Shown here piece by piece: positions 7,885-16,103 of a stretch of DNA of 64,000 nucleotides. Location of the stretch: contig NZ_CAXXKL010000003.1 in the NCBI RefSeq assembly GCF_963677715.2, positions 720,044-784,043 on the forward strand. Reading direction: 5' to 3'. A model generated the notes under the pieces. It ran no database searches. It was not told the DNA's origin and was given only the letters and a program-made list of their open reading frames with translations. This stretch comes from an uncultured Bacteroides sp. GTDB taxonomy: Bacteria > Bacteroidota > Bacteroidia > Bacteroidales > Bacteroidaceae. The number at the start of each line of letters is the position of its first letter. Position 1 is the first letter of the stretch. Both the position numbers and the translations under genes were made by a program.

Positions 7885-8895
7885 ATGAAACAATTAATGA
7901 ACTCAATGGAGAACAAAACAGAACAAACAAGTACACTTCAGCATTTTGTACCTTTATTATCCGATGAACTAATCCTTTCCGGCAGACACGGGACGGCACG
8001 CGCATACACGAGTGCCTTTAAAAGATTAACCCGTTTCACGGGAAAAGCGGACATAACCTTCGCGGAGCTGACACCTGCTCTGATGAAACAGTTCGAACAA
8101 CATCTGTATGCAGCGGGGAGCAAGAGAAACTCCATATCCCTGTACATGCGCATGCTTCGTTCTATCTGCAACCAGGCAGTAAGAAGAGGCTTGGCAAACA
8201 TTCCGCATGAGCTGTTTCATGACGTATTCACCGGCACGGATAGTTGCGAAAAGCGGGCGATGTCACCTGCCGTCATCCGGTGTCTGCACCAAGCAGATCT
8301 GGAAAGCAAACCTTCCCTTAGCTTTGCCAGAGACATGTTTTTGCTCTCATTCTACCTAAGGGGTATCCCGTATGTAGATCTCATACATCTGAGAAAAAAA
8401 GACCTGAACAAGGGAGTATTGCGTTATCGCCGGAGCAAAACAAACCGTTTGGTTACGGTATGCGTGGAGGCCTGCGCAATGACTATCTTCCGTAAATATG
8501 CCTCTTCAGCAGGAAAATCACCCTATCTGCTTCCGGTCATCACACGTACCGGGCAAGAGGGGTACCGGCAATACCAAAGCGCCCTGCGATTGTACAATAA
8601 GCGGCTGCATTGCCTCTCGGAAATGCTGGAGCTCAAAGAAAATCTGACATCTTATGTGGCACGCCACTCCTGGGCCACAGCAGCTTATCGGCAAGGCATT
8701 CCGGTAGCCATCATCAGCGAATCATTGGGGCACGCTTCAGAGAAGATGACTTATCACTACTTAGCTTCGTTTGATAACCGCACTTTACGAAAAGCCAACC
8801 GAAAAGTGATTGCACTAATGATGACCGAAACAAATAAGCCCCAAACGCCTCCGAAACATTCGCCGTATCCATGGATAAACAAAGCGATAGGATAA
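7885..8895 (+). CDS. Tyrosine site-specific recombinase (Tsr-type invertase) with an N-terminal SAM-like domain
   Basis: Catalytic motifs SFYLRG, YRRSKT, SYVARHSWAT, LGH and TYHYL. It lies 130 bp from an inverted-repeat-flanked segment. Confidence 0.92.
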   Translation: MKQLMNSMENKTEQTSTLQHFVPLLSDELILSGRHGTARAYTSAFKRLTRFTGKADITFAELTPALMKQFEQHLYAAGSKRNSISLYMRMLRSICNQAVRRGLANIPHELFHDVFTGTDSCEKRAMSPAVIRCLHQADLESKPSLSFARDMFLLSFYLRGIPYVDLIHLRKKDLNKGVLRYRRSKTNRLVTVCVEACAMTIFRKYASSAGKSPYLLPVITRTGQEGYRQYQSALRLYNKRLHCLSEMLELKENLTSYVARHSWATAAYRQGIPVAIISESLGHASEKMTYHYLASFDNRTLRKANRKVIALMMTETNKPQTPPKHSPYPWINKAIG

Positions 8896-9024
8896 GAAAA
8901 CAAGGCGTTATTTTGTAGCGAAAGAGGTTCCACCCAGGAATCATCGTTTTGCTTTTCCGATAATAAACAGAGAAGAGAATAATGAATGAAAACACTTACT
9001 AGAAGGATTTACAGGGATTTTTAA

Positions 9025-9052
9025 TCGTTCCGTTACTTCACAGGTAACAGAA
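9025..9052 (+). repeat. Left inverted repeat (recombinase crossover site)
   Basis: TCGTTCCGTTACTTCACAGGTAACAGAA is the exact reverse complement of 9517-9544. It has an internal dyad GTTAC-N7-GTAAC. Confidence 0.93.
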
Positions 9053-9066
9053 TTTGTTTGAGACTG

Positions 9067-9098
9067 CAAATATTGAAATATTATATTAAACTACCAAA
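9067..9098 (-). promoter_or_regulatory. Bacteroides sigma-70-type promoter inside the invertible segment, facing away from the downstream genes (OFF)
   Basis: Minus strand TTTG-N20-AATATTTG followed by CA; one mismatch to the TTTG-N19-21-TAnnTTTG consensus. Confidence 0.7.
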
Positions 9099-9516
9099 TA
9101 AAATAAGTATTAATTAATTGATTTTGATAAATAACATTAATTAATAGTACTTATTTATTAGCATTAAACTGAAAACTTATGTATATATATGTACTTATAT
9201 AACAATAATACATGATATAAATATATTTAAACAAATAGAAATAAAGCATACACAAAATAATTTGTTTTTTTGAGAAATAGCCTTGCTTTCCAAAGATAAA
9301 TGATTAAAATATCTTGTTTGAGCATACATTGCATAACACTACCCAACAGCATTTTATCAACGCCATGTTTACATTCCTGTTTTTTTCGGCACACATGAGA
9401 ATGGCTGTTCAACACATTTTTATGTACTGAAACCTGTCTATACGCATTCGTCGCGACCATTTATGCTTTTAGCATTCTTCGGAATTGCATACCCGAATCA
9501 TTTCTTTGATTCGCGG

Positions 9517-9544
9517 TTCTGTTACCTGTGAAGTAACGGAACGA
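9517..9544 (-). repeat. Right inverted repeat (recombinase crossover site)
   Basis: TTCTGTTACCTGTGAAGTAACGGAACGA, ending 17 bp before the ATG at 9562. Confidence 0.93.
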
Positions 9545-9561
9545 CTAAAAAAGGAAAAAAG

Positions 9562-9969
9562 ATGTTGAGTCCCGAAATATTAAAAGCCGTAGCGCTGATT
9601 AAGGACATCCACTATGGAATCCCCTTATCGGAGAGTCGGCGTCGGCACTTGTTATCGGATGCCGATCGGCGTAAATTGCTGAACCGTTTTCGTTCGGCGG
9701 GGATGATACGGCTCAAAAACGAAATGGGCGACGTTCACCTCCCCGATTCCTACGAGCTGTGTTATCCCCTGCACGAGATCTCCCTCTGCGACATCATGGT
9801 GGCCACAGGTGGCGGCATCGCTTTCTCTATGGAGGATACTGAAGAAATTTATAACCGTTACGGCATGGCGGGCAACCGACTGGGGGTACTCAACCAGATG
9901 GCTTGTCGCTATCTATCGGAGATCCGGCTGACAGACCTACTGACAGCCGAGCCGGAGAGAGTGCATTAA
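9562..9969 (+). CDS. Hypothetical protein, probable Rrf2-like winged-helix DNA-binding protein
   Basis: RKLLNRFRSAGMIR...SYELCYPLHEISLCDIMVATGGGI resembles the Rrf2 pattern L.KAGLV...GY.LARP.EEISL.DI..A.EG (by eye). Confidence 0.55.
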   Translation: MLSPEILKAVALIKDIHYGIPLSESRRRHLLSDADRRKLLNRFRSAGMIRLKNEMGDVHLPDSYELCYPLHEISLCDIMVATGGGIAFSMEDTEEIYNRYGMAGNRLGVLNQMACRYLSEIRLTDLLTAEPERVH

Positions 9970-10002
9970 AGCACAAAATAAAAACTTCAGAGAAATAAAA
10001 TA

Positions 10003-10980
10003 ATGAAATTCATTAGTATAAATAATTTAGAAATGACAAGTATGAAAAAAATGATTTTAGTACCGTTGTCCATCCTGCTGCTGGCAGGTTGTTCTTCGGA
10101 CAACGAACCGCAAAGCGGTACAACAACAGATCCCGTTGAAATTAAGCTTACCGGAGGGATTCAAAGTATCACAGCTACAACACGTGGAGACGGAGTAATT
10201 TCCGGAACTTTACCAGCAAGCGAATTGAGCATTAGTCTTGCCAGAAACAATGCATTGAATATTGATGCAACGACTTACCAGGATTACAAAAATTTATCAT
10301 CTTCGCTTGCTGCAACTATTAGTACAGCAGGGGCAATTACCATTACACCTACAGAGTATTATCTAACTAATAGTTACTCTACAAAATTAGTTGGCTGGTA
10401 CCCAAGTACCGGTACATTTACAGAACAAACAGATGCCCCGGCAACGGTAACTTTCGCCCTTGACGGCAGCACCGATGTGATGCTCAGCAATGAAGTGGTT
10501 GGTTCAAAAAGCTCACCTTCTCCGGCCATGACCTTTGCTCACTTGCTCACACAAATACAGATAAAGGCGTATGCTGAAAGCCCCGCGGCTCAAACTCTCT
10601 GGGGAAATATAACAGCAGCGATAAAAATTAAAAGTCAGGAACCTACTTGCACAGTAACTTTACCTGCTGCAATCGACTTTTCAGGAACGGCAGCCGATGT
10701 GCCTATGTCGATAGTCCCCAATGCACTTTCAGCTGATTCCGAATCACCCACAGATTGTGGCTATGCAATGATTCCACCTGCAACTGCATCAACACAGCTT
10801 CAAATTGAGGTTACCACCGCAACAGGAGGAACCATTACACTGAACCTTCCGTTACAGGCTTATAACGCAAGCCATGCTTATACTATTACTTTATTGTTCA
10901 GATCGACAAATGTTACACCCTCCGCCTCTATGACAGACTGGACATCGGAAACTGTTGGAACTCCGGTAGAAGCACAATAA
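10003..10980 (+). CDS. Fimbrillin-family (type V pilin, BF2867/Mfa-like) lipoprotein
   Basis: Lipobox LLLAG-C, processing site TTR/G, DVMLS...F.HLLTQIQI motif, C-terminal SMTDW donor-strand-like tail. The true start may be a downstream ATG (MTSMKK). Confidence 0.8.
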   Translation: MKFISINNLEMTSMKKMILVPLSILLLAGCSSDNEPQSGTTTDPVEIKLTGGIQSITATTRGDGVISGTLPASELSISLARNNALNIDATTYQDYKNLSSSLAATISTAGAITITPTEYYLTNSYSTKLVGWYPSTGTFTEQTDAPATVTFALDGSTDVMLSNEVVGSKSSPSPAMTFAHLLTQIQIKAYAESPAAQTLWGNITAAIKIKSQEPTCTVTLPAAIDFSGTAADVPMSIVPNALSADSESPTDCGYAMIPPATASTQLQIEVTTATGGTITLNLPLQAYNASHAYTITLLFRSTNVTPSASMTDWTSETVGTPVEAQ

Positions 10981-11068: not shown

Positions 11069-11100
11069 GCCTTCGGTTAGAAATGACCGAAGGCTTTTTA
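11069..11100 (+). terminator. Intrinsic terminator after the pilin gene
   Basis: GCCTTCGGT-N8-ACCGAAGGC followed by TTTTT. Confidence 0.8.
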
Positions 11101-11229
11101 TTATGAACACAAAAAGCTACAAGTAAACATCTACAGAAATTCATTTTAATCTGCTAACAAATAAGGGCTTATCAAATAGCTATAAATGGGTATTTTTATG
11201 CTGAACAACATAAAAACAAGTCGTTTTTC

Positions 11230-11260
11230 GTTGCTATCTCACAAAAAGATAGTACTTTTG
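11230..11260 (+). promoter_or_regulatory. pflB promoter
   Basis: GTTG-N19-TACTTTTG followed by CA. Confidence 0.6.
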
Positions 11261-11298: not shown

Positions 11299-13527
11299 AT
11301 GGAACCAATTAAGATCTTTAAGGACGGACTTTGGAGCAAAGAAATTAACGTCAAAGATTTCGTTAGCAATAACATCACTCCTTATAACGGTGATGCATCT
11401 TTCTTACAAGGCCCTACCGAAAGGACCAAGCATGTTTGGGACGTTTGTCTCAAAGCCATTGAAGAAGAAAGAACTAACAACGGACTCCGCTCACTGGATA
11501 ATAAAACGGTATCTACCATCACTTCTCACAAAGCAGGTTACATTGATAAAGAAAACGAACTGATCGTTGGTTTGCAGACCGACGAGCTGCTGAAACGTGC
11601 CATTAAACCTTTTGGAGGCATCAATGTGGTAGCCCGTGCCTGTCATGAAAATGGCGTGGAGGTAGATGAAAAGGTAAAAGAGATTTTCACTCATTACCGC
11701 AAAACACACAACGATGGTGTGTTTGATGTATATACAGAAGAAATTCGTTCGTTCCGCTCACTGGGATTCCTCACGGGATTGCCCGACAACTATGCCCGAG
11801 GGCGGGTAATCGGTGATTATCGCCGATTGGCTCTTTACGGTGTAGATCAGCTGATTAAAGCCAAACAAGAGGATTTACAGAACCTGACAGGCCCGATGAC
11901 AGAGGCTCGCATTCGCTTGCGCGAAGAGGTGGCTGAGCAAATCAAGGCGCTGAAAGATATTAAAGTGATGGGCGAGTATTACGGATTGGAACTCGGACGT
12001 CCGGCACATTCGGCCCAGGAGGCTGTTCAATGGGTATATATGGCTTATTTGGCTGCCGTAAAAGAGCAAGACGGAGCTGCCATGTCTCTGGGCAATGTGT
12101 CTTCGTTCTTAGATATTTATCTGGAATATGAACTAAGCAAAGGCCTCATCGACGAGTCATTGGCGCAGGAGTTGATTGATCAATTCATCATAAAACTTCG
12201 TATGGTGCGCCACCTACGCATGCAATCTTATAACGATATTTTTGCAGGAGATCCAACCTGGGTTACCGAGGCTATCGGCGGACGCTTTAACGACGGACGA
12301 CACAAGGTAACAAAAACCTCGTTCCGCTTCTTGCAAACGCTATATAACTTAGGGCCATCTCCCGAACCGAACTTAACTATATTATGGTCGCCGGCTTTGC
12401 CCGACGGTTTCAAGGCTTTTTGCACAAAGGTCTCTATCGATACTTCATCCATTCAATACGAAAACGACGATTTGATGCGTTCCGTTCGCCATTCCGATGA
12501 TTACGGAATTGCTTGTTGCGTATCATTTCAGGATATCGGCCGACAGATTCAATTCTTCGGAGCACGTGCCAACCTGGCCAAAGCCTTATTGCTTGCCATC
12601 AACGGCGGACGCTGCGAGAATACGGGTACGGTAATGGTTAAAGGCATTCCGGTACTGACAAGCGATAAGTTGAACTTCGACGAAGTAATGGCTAACTACA
12701 AAGTAGTGCTAAAGGAAATTGCGCGGGTATACAACGATGCAATGAACATCATTCACTACATGCACGATAAGTATTATTACGAAAAAGCACAGATGGCATT
12801 CGTCGACACCAATCCACGTATCAATCTAGCTTACGGTGCTGCCGGACTTTCCATTGCTGCCGACTCGCTATCGGCTATTAAATTTGCTAACGTTACGGCT
12901 CACCGCAATGAAATCGGTTTAACGGAATCATTCGATATTGACGGGGAATTTCCTTGTTATGGAAATGATGATGACCGTGTAGACGAACTGGCAGTAGGGT
13001 TAACACACCTGTTTAGCGAAGAGCTCAGCAAATTGCACATTTACAAGAATGCACGCCCCACACTGTCTATCCTTACCATTACCTCGAACGTGATGTATGG
13101 CAAAAAAACAGGTGCCACACCCGACGGGCGACTAAAAGGTGTTCCTTTTGCTCCGGGTGCCAACCCGATGCACGGACGTGATTCGAAAGGTGCCATTGCC
13201 TCGCTGACTTCTGTAGCAAAAATCAGGTATGAAGATGCACAAGATGGGGTAAGTAACACATTCTCTATCGTTCCGAAATCTCTCGGAGTTACGGAAGAAG
13301 ACCGTGTGGACAATCTTGTAGCAATGATGGACGGATACTTCAGCAAAGGTGCACACCACTTGAATGTGAATGTACTGAATCGCGAAATGCTGGAAGATGC
13401 CATGGAGCATCCGGAAAACTATCCGCAACTAACCATCCGTGTTTCGGGATATGCCGTGCATTTTGTGAGCTTGAGCCGCGAACATCAGCTAGAAGTTATT
13501 TCTCGCAGTTTTCACAGCAAAATGTAA
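11299..13527 (+). CDS. pflB: Formate C-acetyltransferase (pyruvate formate-lyase)
   Basis: GLPD.Y.RGR.IGDYRR, IACCVS active-site cysteines, glycyl-radical motif [10 protein letters not shown]. Confidence 0.97.
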
Positions 13528-13531
13528 GGAG

Positions 13532-14257
13532 ATGATAAAAGTTCATTCTTATGAATCTATGGGAACATTCGACGGGCCGGGTCTCCGGCTCGTCGTTTTC
13601 CTTCAGGGGTGCAACTTCCGTTGCCTATATTGTGCCAATCCCGACACCATTGCGGTTAATGGCGGAACAGCTACCGAACCCGAAGAAATAATACGTATGG
13701 CTCTTAGCCAAAAGGCTTTCTTTGGTAAAAAAGGAGGAATTACTTTTTCGGGGGGAGAACCAACACTGCAAGCCCAAACGTTAGTTCCGCTTTTTCGCCG
13801 ACTGAAAGAAGAAGGAATACACATCTGTCTGGATAGCAACGGAAGCATATGGAATGAGGATGTAAAAGAGTTATTGGAACTGACCGATTTGGTTTTACTC
13901 GACGTTAAGCAATTTAATGCCATGCGCCATCAATCGCTCACAGGACACAGCAACGAACAGACACTACGCACTGCCGCCTGGCTGGAAGAAAACAAGAGAC
14001 CTTTCTGGTTGCGATACGTGCTGGTACCGGGCTACAGTGACTTTGAGGAAGATATTATCGGTCTGGGCGAACAGCTGGGTACATACAAGATGATTCAGCG
14101 AATAGAGATATTACCTTATCACACACTCGGCGTACACAAATATGAAGCAATGAAACAAACATATCTGTTGGAAGGGGTAAAGGAAAACACGCCTGAACAA
14201 ACCGAGCATGCAGCCAATCTGTTCAAGCGTTACTTTCAAACGGTATATATCAACTAA
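13532..14257 (+). CDS. pflA: PFL-activating enzyme (radical SAM)
   Basis: GTFDGPG.RLVVFLQGC, CNFRCLYC, SGGEP; adjacent to pflB. Confidence 0.96.
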   Translation: MIKVHSYESMGTFDGPGLRLVVFLQGCNFRCLYCANPDTIAVNGGTATEPEEIIRMALSQKAFFGKKGGITFSGGEPTLQAQTLVPLFRRLKEEGIHICLDSNGSIWNEDVKELLELTDLVLLDVKQFNAMRHQSLTGHSNEQTLRTAAWLEENKRPFWLRYVLVPGYSDFEEDIIGLGEQLGTYKMIQRIEILPYHTLGVHKYEAMKQTYLLEGVKENTPEQTEHAANLFKRYFQTVYIN

Positions 14258-14283: not shown

Positions 14284-15519
14284 TTAATAGGTAAAGCGAA
14301 TGCCGGCCTGAATATTCAGGTTAAACGGCGTTTCCTTTCGGATGGTTTGCACATCGGAACCATCATCAAAGAAATAAGCCACACCCGGTTCTATATAAAT
14401 GCCGATATGTTTAGTGGTATTTAATTGAGCACCTACTGCACCCGAAAGAGACCACTGTAAAGGTTTCACGGTTAGTTTCTCCGATCCCAGCTTTCCGTAA
14501 ACGGATTTTTCGACCAATCCTCCACCCGTAAGATAAAGAGTAAATCTGTCTTTATTCATAAAACTCCAGTTGGCCCGCAAAGGGATGCCAATGTAATGAA
14601 GCTTTTGCTCACTGGTTTGTGCACTTCCCTGAAACTTCACATCCGAAGAAAGTAGCGTGTACGTTACTCCCGTCTCAACAGAAAAGCGGTTGGACAGTTC
14701 CTTACGAACGGAAAGTCCGAATGTTATGGGCTGATGATGCTCTATGTTCGTTACATCATATTCTACATAAGGCAAACCTTCCTTAAACACAATCGTCTGA
14801 TTTTCAGGGATCGATACGAATCCTTCTGTAACATCGTCAAGTAAATATCCTGCTCCCTGAACCGTATTATTCTCGCCACCCCCATACGTGCCGGAAGCAT
14901 TCGTTACGGAAACTCCGACCGACCATCTACGGCTTTTACTTGAAGAGGATTTAACAGGTATATTCAGCTTATCTCTACTGGAAGGACGCCTGACTACTTG
15001 TCGTGAGCTATGCTCTTGAGACGTTACCTCTTCCTTCTCTGTAGGTTGGTTCCCATTTGTTTCATGCTGTTTTTCATCATCCGTCACTGAGTTTTCGTTT
15101 TCAGCAACCGCCTCAGCTACAAGCGCTTTTTCACCAATAGCAGTGGAATGTGTTGCCCGATTTGTTTTCTCCCGAGAAGTACCAGCCTGTGCTATACGCA
15201 TTGATTCCGTGGGTGAGGTAGTAGAGGCAGGCTCTTTTGTTTGGGGAAGTGCATCCGGCAATGTAGCAAGAGCCGGTACGTTTTGCTCCATTTCACGGAC
15301 AACCGGACTGTTAAGGAGATACAAGCTCACCCCTGCGGCAATCAGCAACATCACTCCCGCAGCAACCCACCAGCGATAAGGATAGATGTGCCGCTTGGGA
15401 ACGGAGGGCAACAGTGCTTTCTCCAATCGTTGCCAACCATCGGCAGGATAAGGTTCGGAATAATCTTCGAGAGACTCCCGCAACTTCTTAGTCCATATTT
15501 CTTTATCTTGTTTCACCAT
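14284..15519 (-). CDS. Dual-membrane-spanning anti-sigma factor (Dma-type)
   Basis: Short N-terminal domain, TM helix (WWVAAGVMLLIAAGVSLYLL), long Pro/Ser/Thr/Glu-rich tether and C-terminal beta-barrel ending NIQAGIRFTY. It lies directly downstream of an ECF gene. Confidence 0.75.
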   Translation of the reverse strand: MVKQDKEIWTKKLRESLEDYSEPYPADGWQRLEKALLPSVPKRHIYPYRWWVAAGVMLLIAAGVSLYLLNSPVVREMEQNVPALATLPDALPQTKEPASTTSPTESMRIAQAGTSREKTNRATHSTAIGEKALVAEAVAENENSVTDDEKQHETNGNQPTEKEEVTSQEHSSRQVVRRPSSRDKLNIPVKSSSSKSRRWSVGVSVTNASGTYGGGENNTVQGAGYLLDDVTEGFVSIPENQTIVFKEGLPYVEYDVTNIEHHQPITFGLSVRKELSNRFSVETGVTYTLLSSDVKFQGSAQTSEQKLHYIGIPLRANWSFMNKDRFTLYLTGGGLVEKSVYGKLGSEKLTVKPLQWSLSGAVGAQLNTTKHIGIYIEPGVAYFFDDGSDVQTIRKETPFNLNIQAGIRFTY

Positions 15520-15542
15520 CTATTTATTATGGTTTTACTAAC

Positions 15543-16103
15543 TTAACTATTTTCATCAATATAAGCTCTGATCTTTTTTGCGAGCACCTGCTTGGCCCGG
15601 AACAGTTGAGAAGCCGATGATTTCTCATTGATACCCAACAAGGCGGCAATCTCCTTATGAGATTTTTCTTCAAACATATAGAGATTGAACACCGTACGAT
15701 AACCTGCCGGAAGTTCTGCAATAAATGCCATCAACACTTTATTCGGAATAGCCTCAATGTCAGATGCTTCAGGTTCCTGACTAATCTCCGGAACATCATC
15801 TATATTCATTGCCTGATTCATCACATCGCCCTTGCGCAAAAACTGCAAAGCCGTATTTATCATTACCCGTTCTATCCACGCTCTGAGTGAGCCTTCTCCG
15901 CGCCATGAAAATTTATCAAAAGAATTGAAGATCTTTATAAAGCCATCGTGCAACACATCCTGAGCCGTATCCCTGTTGCCCACATAGCGAAGACAGATAC
16001 CAAACAATCGCCCCGCAAAGCGCTCATAGAGTTCTTTGCGGGCAGAGTTGTCGCCTCGCCTGCACTGTTCTGCCAGCTCATATTCTTCCATTCTTTCAGA
16101 CAC
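15543..16103 (-). CDS. ECF sigma factor (cognate of the Dma-type anti-sigma)
   Basis: AQDVLHDGFIKIF, W.ERVMINTAL, LPAGYRTVFNL, HKEIA.LLGI...S.SQL.RAK. Start is GTG 16103 or ATG 16091. Confidence 0.92.
   Translation of the reverse strand: MSERMEEYELAEQCRRGDNSARKELYERFAGRLFGICLRYVGNRDTAQDVLHDGFIKIFNSFDKFSWRGEGSLRAWIERVMINTALQFLRKGDVMNQAMNIDDVPEISQEPEASDIEAIPNKVLMAFIAELPAGYRTVFNLYMFEEKSHKEIAALLGINEKSSASQLFRAKQVLAKKIRAYIDENS

Follow-up and report, generated by a model that had tools for sequence, protein, structure and literature searches.

A stretch of 64,000 nucleotides from the genome of an uncultured Bacteroides sp. (NCBI RefSeq assembly GCF_963677715.2, contig NZ_CAXXKL010000003.1, positions 720,044 to 784,043 of the forward strand; in the following, the window) very likely harbors a phase-variation switch of the type known in Bacteroidales for tyrosine site-specific recombinases (Tsr), in which a promoter-bearing DNA segment next to a recombinase gene would be turned around to switch on two genes, encoding a small protein with a predicted Rrf2 fold and a type V pilin. 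This reading builds on the recombination sites, the promoter and its orientation, the folds of the proteins, paralogous modules in the same genome, the covariation of spacers among homologous loci, and one natural inversion at a homologous locus, all of which we observed. The components of the locus, in positions of the window, are as follows.

7885-8895, plus strand: gene of a tyrosine site-specific recombinase of 336 aa, the presumed invertase, identified by its Pfam domains
9025-9052, no strand: left inverted repeat (IRL), composed of arm TTCCGTTAC, spacer TTCACAG and arm GTAACAGAA, and matching GTTAC-N7-GTAAC (PMC4611039) and TACTTNNNANGTAANNGAA (PMC12940148)
9053-9516, no strand: predicted invertible segment, 464 bp between IRL and the right inverted repeat (IRR)
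9067-9098, minus strand: Bacteroides-type promoter, TTTG (-33), N20 and AATATTTG (-7), facing the recombinase gene (OFF)
9517-9544, no strand: IRR, exactly the reverse complement of IRL, ending 17 nt before ATG 9562
9562-9969, plus strand: gene of a small, predicted Rrf2-fold winged-helix protein of 135 aa, the first gene behind the switch (PDB profile search, AF2 model, Foldseek)
10003-10980, plus strand: open reading frame (ORF) of a fimbrillin-like lipoprotein with predicted type V pilin fold (Mfa_like_1, AF2, Foldseek), likely start ATG 10042
11069-11104, plus strand: intrinsic terminator-like hairpin and T-run, an 11-bp stem with 6 GC pairs followed by TTTTTATTAT

The putative recombination sites are well defined. 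A repeat search revealed two inverted arms of 35 nt (9018-9052 and 9517-9551) with 97% complementarity and 464 nt between them, and direct reading of the sequence identified 9025-9052 (TCGTTCCGTTACTTCACAGGTAACAGAA) as the exact reverse complement of 9517-9544. The original prediction, made from the letters of this stretch, of perfect 28-bp inverted repeats enclosing a 520-bp segment is thereby confirmed, the invertible unit measuring 520 bp with and 464 bp without the repeats. Equally correct was its division of each repeat into 9-bp arms, TTCCGTTAC and GTAACAGAA, around a 7-bp spacer; the arms are symmetric at 8 of 9 positions, and the spacer TTCACAG is asymmetric. Throughout the 64-kb window, the pattern GTTAC-N7-GTAAC occurs only at these two sites (0.03 expected), and the window repeat TACTTCACAGGTAACAGAA fits the published 19-nt motif TACTTNNNANGTAANNGAA exactly. 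This motif has 7 matches in the 3.9-Mb genome, compared with 0.35 expected, and 6 of them form three pairs, each adjoining a paralogous recombinase gene. The hairpin formed by IRR in the 5' untranslated region was not more stable than shuffled sequence (z = -0.63).

Two further observations concern similar motifs elsewhere in the genome. An orphan match to the published repeat motif (TACTTTTCACGTAATTGAA at C3:2035737, minus strand), which lacks a partner, is likely a chance match given the 0.35 matches expected per genome. In addition, two identical 33-nt stretches containing GTTAC-N7-GTAAC, lying in direct orientation 7 kb apart (C3:1398946 and C3:1405913), are probably part of a repeated gene and unrelated to switches.

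Inside the segment and adjoining IRL, a Bacteroides-type promoter, TTTG-N20-AATATTTG, reads on the minus strand from 9098 to 9067, outward toward the recombinase gene. Promoters were scanned with the Bacteroides motif (TTTG / TAnnTTTG), which replaced an E. coli-type sigma-70 consensus scan that proved uninformative for this phylum (3 matches versus 7.4 expected). Only 7 occurrences of the bipartite motif (TTTG and -7 box) were found on both strands of the window, and none of the TTTG/TAnnTTTG type on the plus strand between 8896 and 10060. Since the promoter faces away from the downstream genes and no plus-strand motif is present in this interval, the switch is OFF as sequenced, in line with the orientation that had been claimed for the element at 9067-9098. 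Upon inversion, the promoter would come to lie at approximately 9471-9502 on the plus strand, with its -7 box at 9495-9502 and a leader of about 50 nt, IRR included, up to ATG 9562; this computed position also bears out the earlier proposal that inversion would place it just upstream of this start codon. When the segment was compared with 10 homologous segments by blastn, the repeats and window positions ~9018-9135 were the only parts that aligned (76-79% identity). Beyond the repeats, the conserved part of the segment is thus confined to the ~80-110 bp adjoining IRL, namely the promoter region, and both paralogous modules as well as homologous loci have the promoter element at the same position and facing the same way. 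No conserved ORF was detected inside the 464-bp segment in the comparison of the 10 homologous segments, nor did an Rfam search of the segment return a meaningful match.

From this arrangement, we infer that the segment flips at the window locus, that the adjacent recombinase is responsible, and that the two downstream genes are co-transcribed. In our model, the recombinase (7885-8895), possibly helped by its two paralogues, would bind both 9-bp arms of each repeat, and strand exchange across the identical asymmetric 7-bp spacers would flip the 464-bp segment, as both sites lie in inverted orientation. In the OFF state, which is the one sequenced, the single sigma-ABfr-type promoter would fire to the left, in antisense direction into the recombinase gene at its 3' end, and the small gene and the pilin gene would be left without a recognizable promoter of their own. 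In the ON state, the promoter (~9471-9502, plus strand) would transcribe through IRR into the small gene (9562-9969) and the pilin gene (10042-10980), and the transcript would end at the terminator at ~11069-11104. One possibility is that the antisense promoter of the OFF state, by reading into the recombinase gene, provides an orientation-dependent feedback, which would explain the ~49:1 bias toward OFF encountered among homologous loci (see below). We also noted a terminator-like hairpin with a 7-bp stem (9494-9513, plus strand), located just inside IRR in the OFF orientation. It could serve as a block on read-through from the recombinase gene, and in the ON state it would sit at the far end of the segment on the other strand.

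That a tyrosine recombinase precedes the segment, as originally predicted, is substantiated by its domains, Phage_int_SAM_5 (5.6e-18) and Phage_integrase (1.8e-13); its gene ends 130 nt before IRL. In an alignment with XerA (4a8e), the beta-hairpin Lys, Arg II, His III (LGH) and the Tyr nucleophile are conserved, and Arg I appears offset by 3 residues (LRGIP). At least 740 clusters make up the wider family of the recombinase, whose Bacteroides members go under the name "site-specific integrase", and in NCBIfam the protein obtained only generic Xer-like matches below threshold. Two paralogues with 66% and 60% identity and near-identical site arms are encoded in the same genome. Deleting a single tsr gene in P. 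vulgatus was without effect, and inversion ceased only when two were removed together (PMC12940148). By analogy, and given the two close paralogues, loss of one recombinase alone may leave the switch unlocked also here, so that a single-recombinase knockout may mislead.

Further support for a switch was obtained from homologous loci. Over ~50 of them, at least 11 spacers were found, including TTCACAG, TTGACAG, TTTGCAG, TTCATAG, TTCGCAG, TTTGTAG and TTCGTAA, on nearly constant arms, and both repeats of a pair share one spacer in every one of these loci. Strand exchange by tyrosine recombinases demands identical spacers, and this covariation therefore supports the switch. Furthermore, a natural inversion became apparent from the comparison of a B. 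ihuae locus (L030) with a metagenome contig (L020): their flanks match on the same strand with identities of 99% and 98%, whereas the 322-bp segment aligns in reverse orientation (92% identity), its promoter in L030 being directed at the small gene. Two other loci (L019 and L024), with 85-92% flank identity, are also inverted relative to L030.

The homologous loci also displayed features of their own. Between L020 (1754-2075) and L030, the segment with its 92% identity evolves faster than its surroundings with 98-99%. The order recombinase, switch, small protein, DUF3575 and Mfa_like_1 recurs at a very common Bacteroides locus, for which the assembly collection lists 8626 index blocks. In a Bacteroides version of the module that is very common (L042 2936-2983; also L044 and L045), a tandem duplication of the gene-proximal repeat, 31 bp apart, results in three core sites; only two are present in L043, which is from another sample, and L067 and L071 contain an extra site. 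Such loci may represent three-site switches or footprints of recombination. In a subfamily with a small protein of 124 aa (L056-L060, L065-L069 and L071), an element CTATAACGCCTTATATTTTCCGTATTTGCG of ~35 nt is conserved within the segment next to the gene-proximal repeat, at the end away from the promoter; it is no consensus promoter and has no counterpart in the window segment. Finally, an uncultured Bacteroides metagenome-assembled genome (G092) contains six near-identical copies of switch, small protein and pilus operon (L008, L010-L014), all of which share the spacer TTCATAG.

Several findings weigh against the Tsr-type switch and need to be considered together. First, the -7 box AATATTTG departs from the consensus TAnnTTTG at its first base (A for T), a deviation that is conserved in the paralogous modules. 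Second, the HxxR box of the recombinase reads YVAR, with Tyr for His (window 8650-8662, residues 256-260), which may affect activity. Since all three recombinase paralogues have both this box and the Arg I offset in common, the pattern probably reflects a trait of the clade, and not damage. Third, ~49 of the 50 homologous loci, including all three in this genome, were assembled in the OFF orientation, for which a strong bias of the switch or locked copies may account. The ~49:1 ratio fits a phase-variable trait that is mostly OFF, and is no proof for the window locus. Fourth, a DNA search of 250 genomes of the genus found no close orthologue with which the orientation could be compared, nothing exceeding ~80% identity and only short pieces being retrieved. 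Fifth, there is a single pilin gene at the locus, and the anchor, stalk and assembly partners (DUF3575, DUF3868, FimA-like, Mfa2) are absent here; with one pilin gene and neither anchor nor stalk genes, the window locus cannot build a pilus alone. Taking both sides together, we consider the window switch to be real and probably functional.

In the genome (3.9 Mb, 40.7% GC), which shares its genus with B. ihuae, a recombinase, inverted repeats and a small protein occur together as a module three times, the window locus included. The C3 module (L006; recombinase at C3:484922-485839), with the site CCGTTAC-TTTGCAG-GTAATGGAA, heads a canonical type V pilus operon comprising DUF3575, DUF3868, FimA-like, Mfa2, Mfa_like_1 and Mfa_like_2, the pilus partners lying at C3:476641-484486. 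The C1 module (L005; recombinase at C1:258760-259668) has the spacer TTGACAG and lacks a pilin gene; it continues with a DUF3805/DUF3806 protein and an ABC-F ATPase, an arrangement that is syntenic in four species. Identity to the C3 proteins is 81% for the small protein of the window and 57% for its pilin, the latter compared with the Mfa_like_1 subunit of the C3 operon (C3:478856-479779), for which reason the window module looks like a trimmed duplicate of the C3 module from which four genes are missing. All three modules carry different spacers. Because strand exchange by tyrosine recombinases requires spacer homology, the modules should be insulated from one another, and recombination between them barred even if their recombinases cross-react. 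Recombination among the six G092 copies with their common spacer would be possible, unlike among the modules of the window genome.

The first gene behind the switch had been described as Rrf2-like. From Pfam this attribution receives no support at threshold, as no Pfam or NCBIfam family was found above threshold and the score against Pfam Rrf2 (PF02082) stayed at 13.1 bits, below the gathering threshold of 30 bits; profile search and predicted fold, on the other hand, speak for it. Weak Pfam Rrf2 matches were found in 6 of 10 relatives (best E = 7e-4), and in a PDB profile search with 71 relatives the five best matches were all Rrf2 proteins, including RsrR (1.3e-4) and CymR (3.2e-4). With the AF2 model (pLDDT 82.7), Foldseek ranks 1-35 were all Rrf2 regulators (TM 0.45-0.63, probability 0.91-1.0). 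Residues 83-102, which correspond to the region of the Fe-S ligands in the IscR / NsrR / RsrR subgroup, contain no Cys. This excludes no membership in the Rrf2 fold, as CymR-type members are also devoid of the cluster. Judged from these matches and the structural model, the small protein is a divergent, cluster-less member of the predicted Rrf2-fold winged-helix proteins. Its family comprises ~110 clusters at 50% identity and was encountered in 51 out of 250 genomes of the genus, usually in several copies per genome (range 1-9); it is annotated as hypothetical or, by JGI, as an HxlR/IscR-family regulator. The exact window protein was found in this genome only. A literature search for the family of small Rrf2-fold leader proteins found no paper.

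The second gene was rightly assigned to the type V pilins. Its product matches Mfa_like_1 (E = 5e-14, 53.3 bits versus a 27-bit cut-off), and Foldseek with the AF2 model (pLDDT 81) retrieved as best matches the solved Bacteroides pilins 4k4k (E = 2e-13), 3ufi, 3t2l and 3sy6, followed by P. gingivalis Mfa2 (5nfi), Mfa3 (5nf4) and FimA (6jzk); a PDB sequence search returned no match. The ORF from 10003 encodes 325 aa, and the likely start at ATG 10042 (MKKMIL...LLAGC) yields 312 aa, the same length as the database gene call. A lipobox (LLLAGC) is present, with LPAM_1 scoring 19.5 bits, just below the 20-bit cut-off. Its Cys17 as well as Arg48, some 30 residues further on, are invariant in 29 homologues, and Arg48 would be the expected site of cleavage. 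The recombinase, small-protein and pilin ORFs are all intact, and the hairpin proper of the terminator (11069-11094), graded strong, closes the two-gene unit.

An alternative that we regard as possible, yet distinctly less probable than pilin control, is that the switch mainly controls a regulator: the Rrf2-fold protein would be the real cargo, acting in trans, with the pilin as a passenger, and it might cross-regulate other pilus or switch modules or a wider regulon. Such a role would suit the position of the small protein as first gene behind the switch in every examined locus that carries one, the C1 module, which dispenses with a pilin and is kept in synteny, the 1-9 paralogues per genome, and the similarity of the predicted fold to DNA-binding Rrf2 repressors. 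It is equally conceivable, however, that the small protein affects its own operon alone, in cis, or binds no DNA at all. Based on the predicted fold, we only tentatively envisage a phase-variable transcription factor with an UpxZ- or PapB-like role, which would link the paralogous switch modules or a wider regulon, so that turning one 464-bp segment around would reprogram expression in trans; in C1-like modules, the small regulator would then be the sole cargo.

The resemblance to a trimmed C3 module (small protein 81%, pilin 57%, four genes missing), together with the OFF orientation of all three modules and nearly all homologues, could also mean that the switch is a fossil of a duplicated pilus module, permanently OFF. 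We consider this unlikely, as the 28-bp repeats are still perfect while the remainder of the segment can no longer be aligned between paralogues, the three ORFs are intact, and spacer identity within pairs was kept across the family. Similarly improbable in our view is that the pilin gene, or both downstream genes, owe their expression to a fixed promoter or to transcription running on from the recombinase gene, with the switch modulating instead of gating them. The recombinase gene does lie on the same strand, followed by only a weak terminator-like hairpin (8926-8942), and Bacteroides promoters stray from their consensus, so that a motif scan can miss them. Against this explanation, the plus strand from 8896 to 10060 is free of TTTG/TAnnTTTG-type motifs, the hairpin at 9494-9513 stands in the way on the plus strand in the OFF orientation, and the distance from the small gene to the pilin start is only 33-72 nt. 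Finally, the 28-35 bp terminal inverted repeats, the AT-rich 464-bp segment and the adjoining "integrase"-family gene might suggest the ends of a small non-autonomous transposable element or attachment (att) sites of an integrated element, a highly improbable reading, which we rejected as there is no target-site duplication (the flanks instead continue the inverted symmetry), the sites are found at one fixed position, flanked by the same two gene families, in ~50 loci, their sequence is that of a published invertase site, and no other mobile-element genes lie nearby. A Tsr-type switch controlling the small protein and the pilin remains our preferred interpretation.

Directly beyond the switch unit, 11299-14257 encodes pyruvate formate-lyase (pflB, from 11299; 742 aa) and an enzyme of 241 aa that activates it, with a -7 box of their own at 11253. 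On the minus strand (14284-16103), they are followed by genes which, judged from ORF translations only, code for an ECF-type sigma factor (186 aa) and a protein of 411 aa that looks anti-sigma-like in its N-terminal part and beta-barrel-like in its C-terminal part.

B. fragilis and P. vulgatus are already known to phase-vary fimbriae under the control of Tsr invertases, so that the switch itself contributes a further example, from a little-studied Bacteroides species. The undescribed part, and the most interesting lead, is the family of small regulators, which includes modules where the regulator is the only obvious cargo. If it indeed acts in trans, it would add an extra regulatory layer to the phase variation of pili in gut Bacteroides, comparable to UpxY / UpxZ for capsules. 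Moreover, locus-specific spacers on shared recombinase sites offer a simple explanation of how several paralogous switches can coexist in one chromosome and yet not recombine among themselves.

To date, fimbrillin genes are known as an enriched cargo of Bacteroidota invertons (PMC11892184), and phase-variable fimbriae have been reviewed (PMC12632263). The closest known systems are the Tsr-controlled invertible promoters of Mfa1-fimbriae and exopolysaccharide (EPS) in P. vulgatus and B. fragilis with the repeat motif TACTTNNNANGTAANNGAA, namely the switches of P. vulgatus ATCC 8482 (Tsr BVU2677 / BVU2684) and IVp-I / IVp-II of B. fragilis (Tsr BF2766) (PMC12940148). With these, the window locus shares the upstream tyrosine recombinase gene, the promoter-bearing invertible segment and the type V pilus genes. 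Unlike them, its cargo consists of a small Rrf2-fold protein and one Mfa_like_1 pilin instead of a six-gene fimbrial operon, and inversion and its dependence on the recombinase are predicted here from sequence; a small regulator as first gene is not mentioned in the main text of that report (PMC12940148). The S-layer switch BT1927 of B. thetaiotaomicron (BT1928 / BT1929) and its B. fragilis counterpart (Tsr26) likewise have GTTAC-N7-GTAAC repeats (PMC4611039). BT1927 resembles our locus in these inverted repeats, the adjacent recombinase and the OFF orientation, which at BT1927 is that of the wild-type population, but its cargo is a surface-layer lipoprotein and its segment is smaller (256 bp, with 22-bp repeats). 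The invertible promoters of capsular polysaccharide (CPS) loci in B. thetaiotaomicron and B. xylanisolvens, with the repeat GTTACTTCTTAGGTAACGGA and upstream tyrosine invertases (bioRxiv 10.1101/2024.11.17.624012), also carry GTTAC-N7-GTAAC repeats, and have a nearly identical site and a recombinase immediately upstream as well. There, the locus-specific regulators UpxY / UpxZ are the first genes behind the switch (PMC12632263), a position that may be a possible analogy for the small protein, although UpxY has a NusG-like fold in place of the Rrf2 fold and the CPS cargo is a polysaccharide locus and not a pilin.

With the Rrf2 regulators IscR, NsrR, RsrR and CymR, the small protein has in common the predicted winged helix-turn-helix and a long dimerization helix. 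In contrast to them, it is shorter and stays below threshold in Pfam, lacks the Cys cluster of IscR, NsrR and RsrR, and is located behind an invertible promoter and ahead of pilus genes. The principle as a whole is also reminiscent of fimS in E. coli, where the tyrosine recombinases FimB and FimE invert a promoter segment and thereby phase-vary type 1 fimbriae in an OFF-biased population, but the recombinase clade, the sites (9-bp repeats in fimS), the promoter type and the pilus class (chaperone-usher in fimS) are unrelated. What places the window locus among the Tsr-type switches is the combination of an adjacent tyrosine recombinase gene, a pair of GTTAC-N7-GTAAC repeats and an outward-reading Bacteroides-type promoter within the segment.

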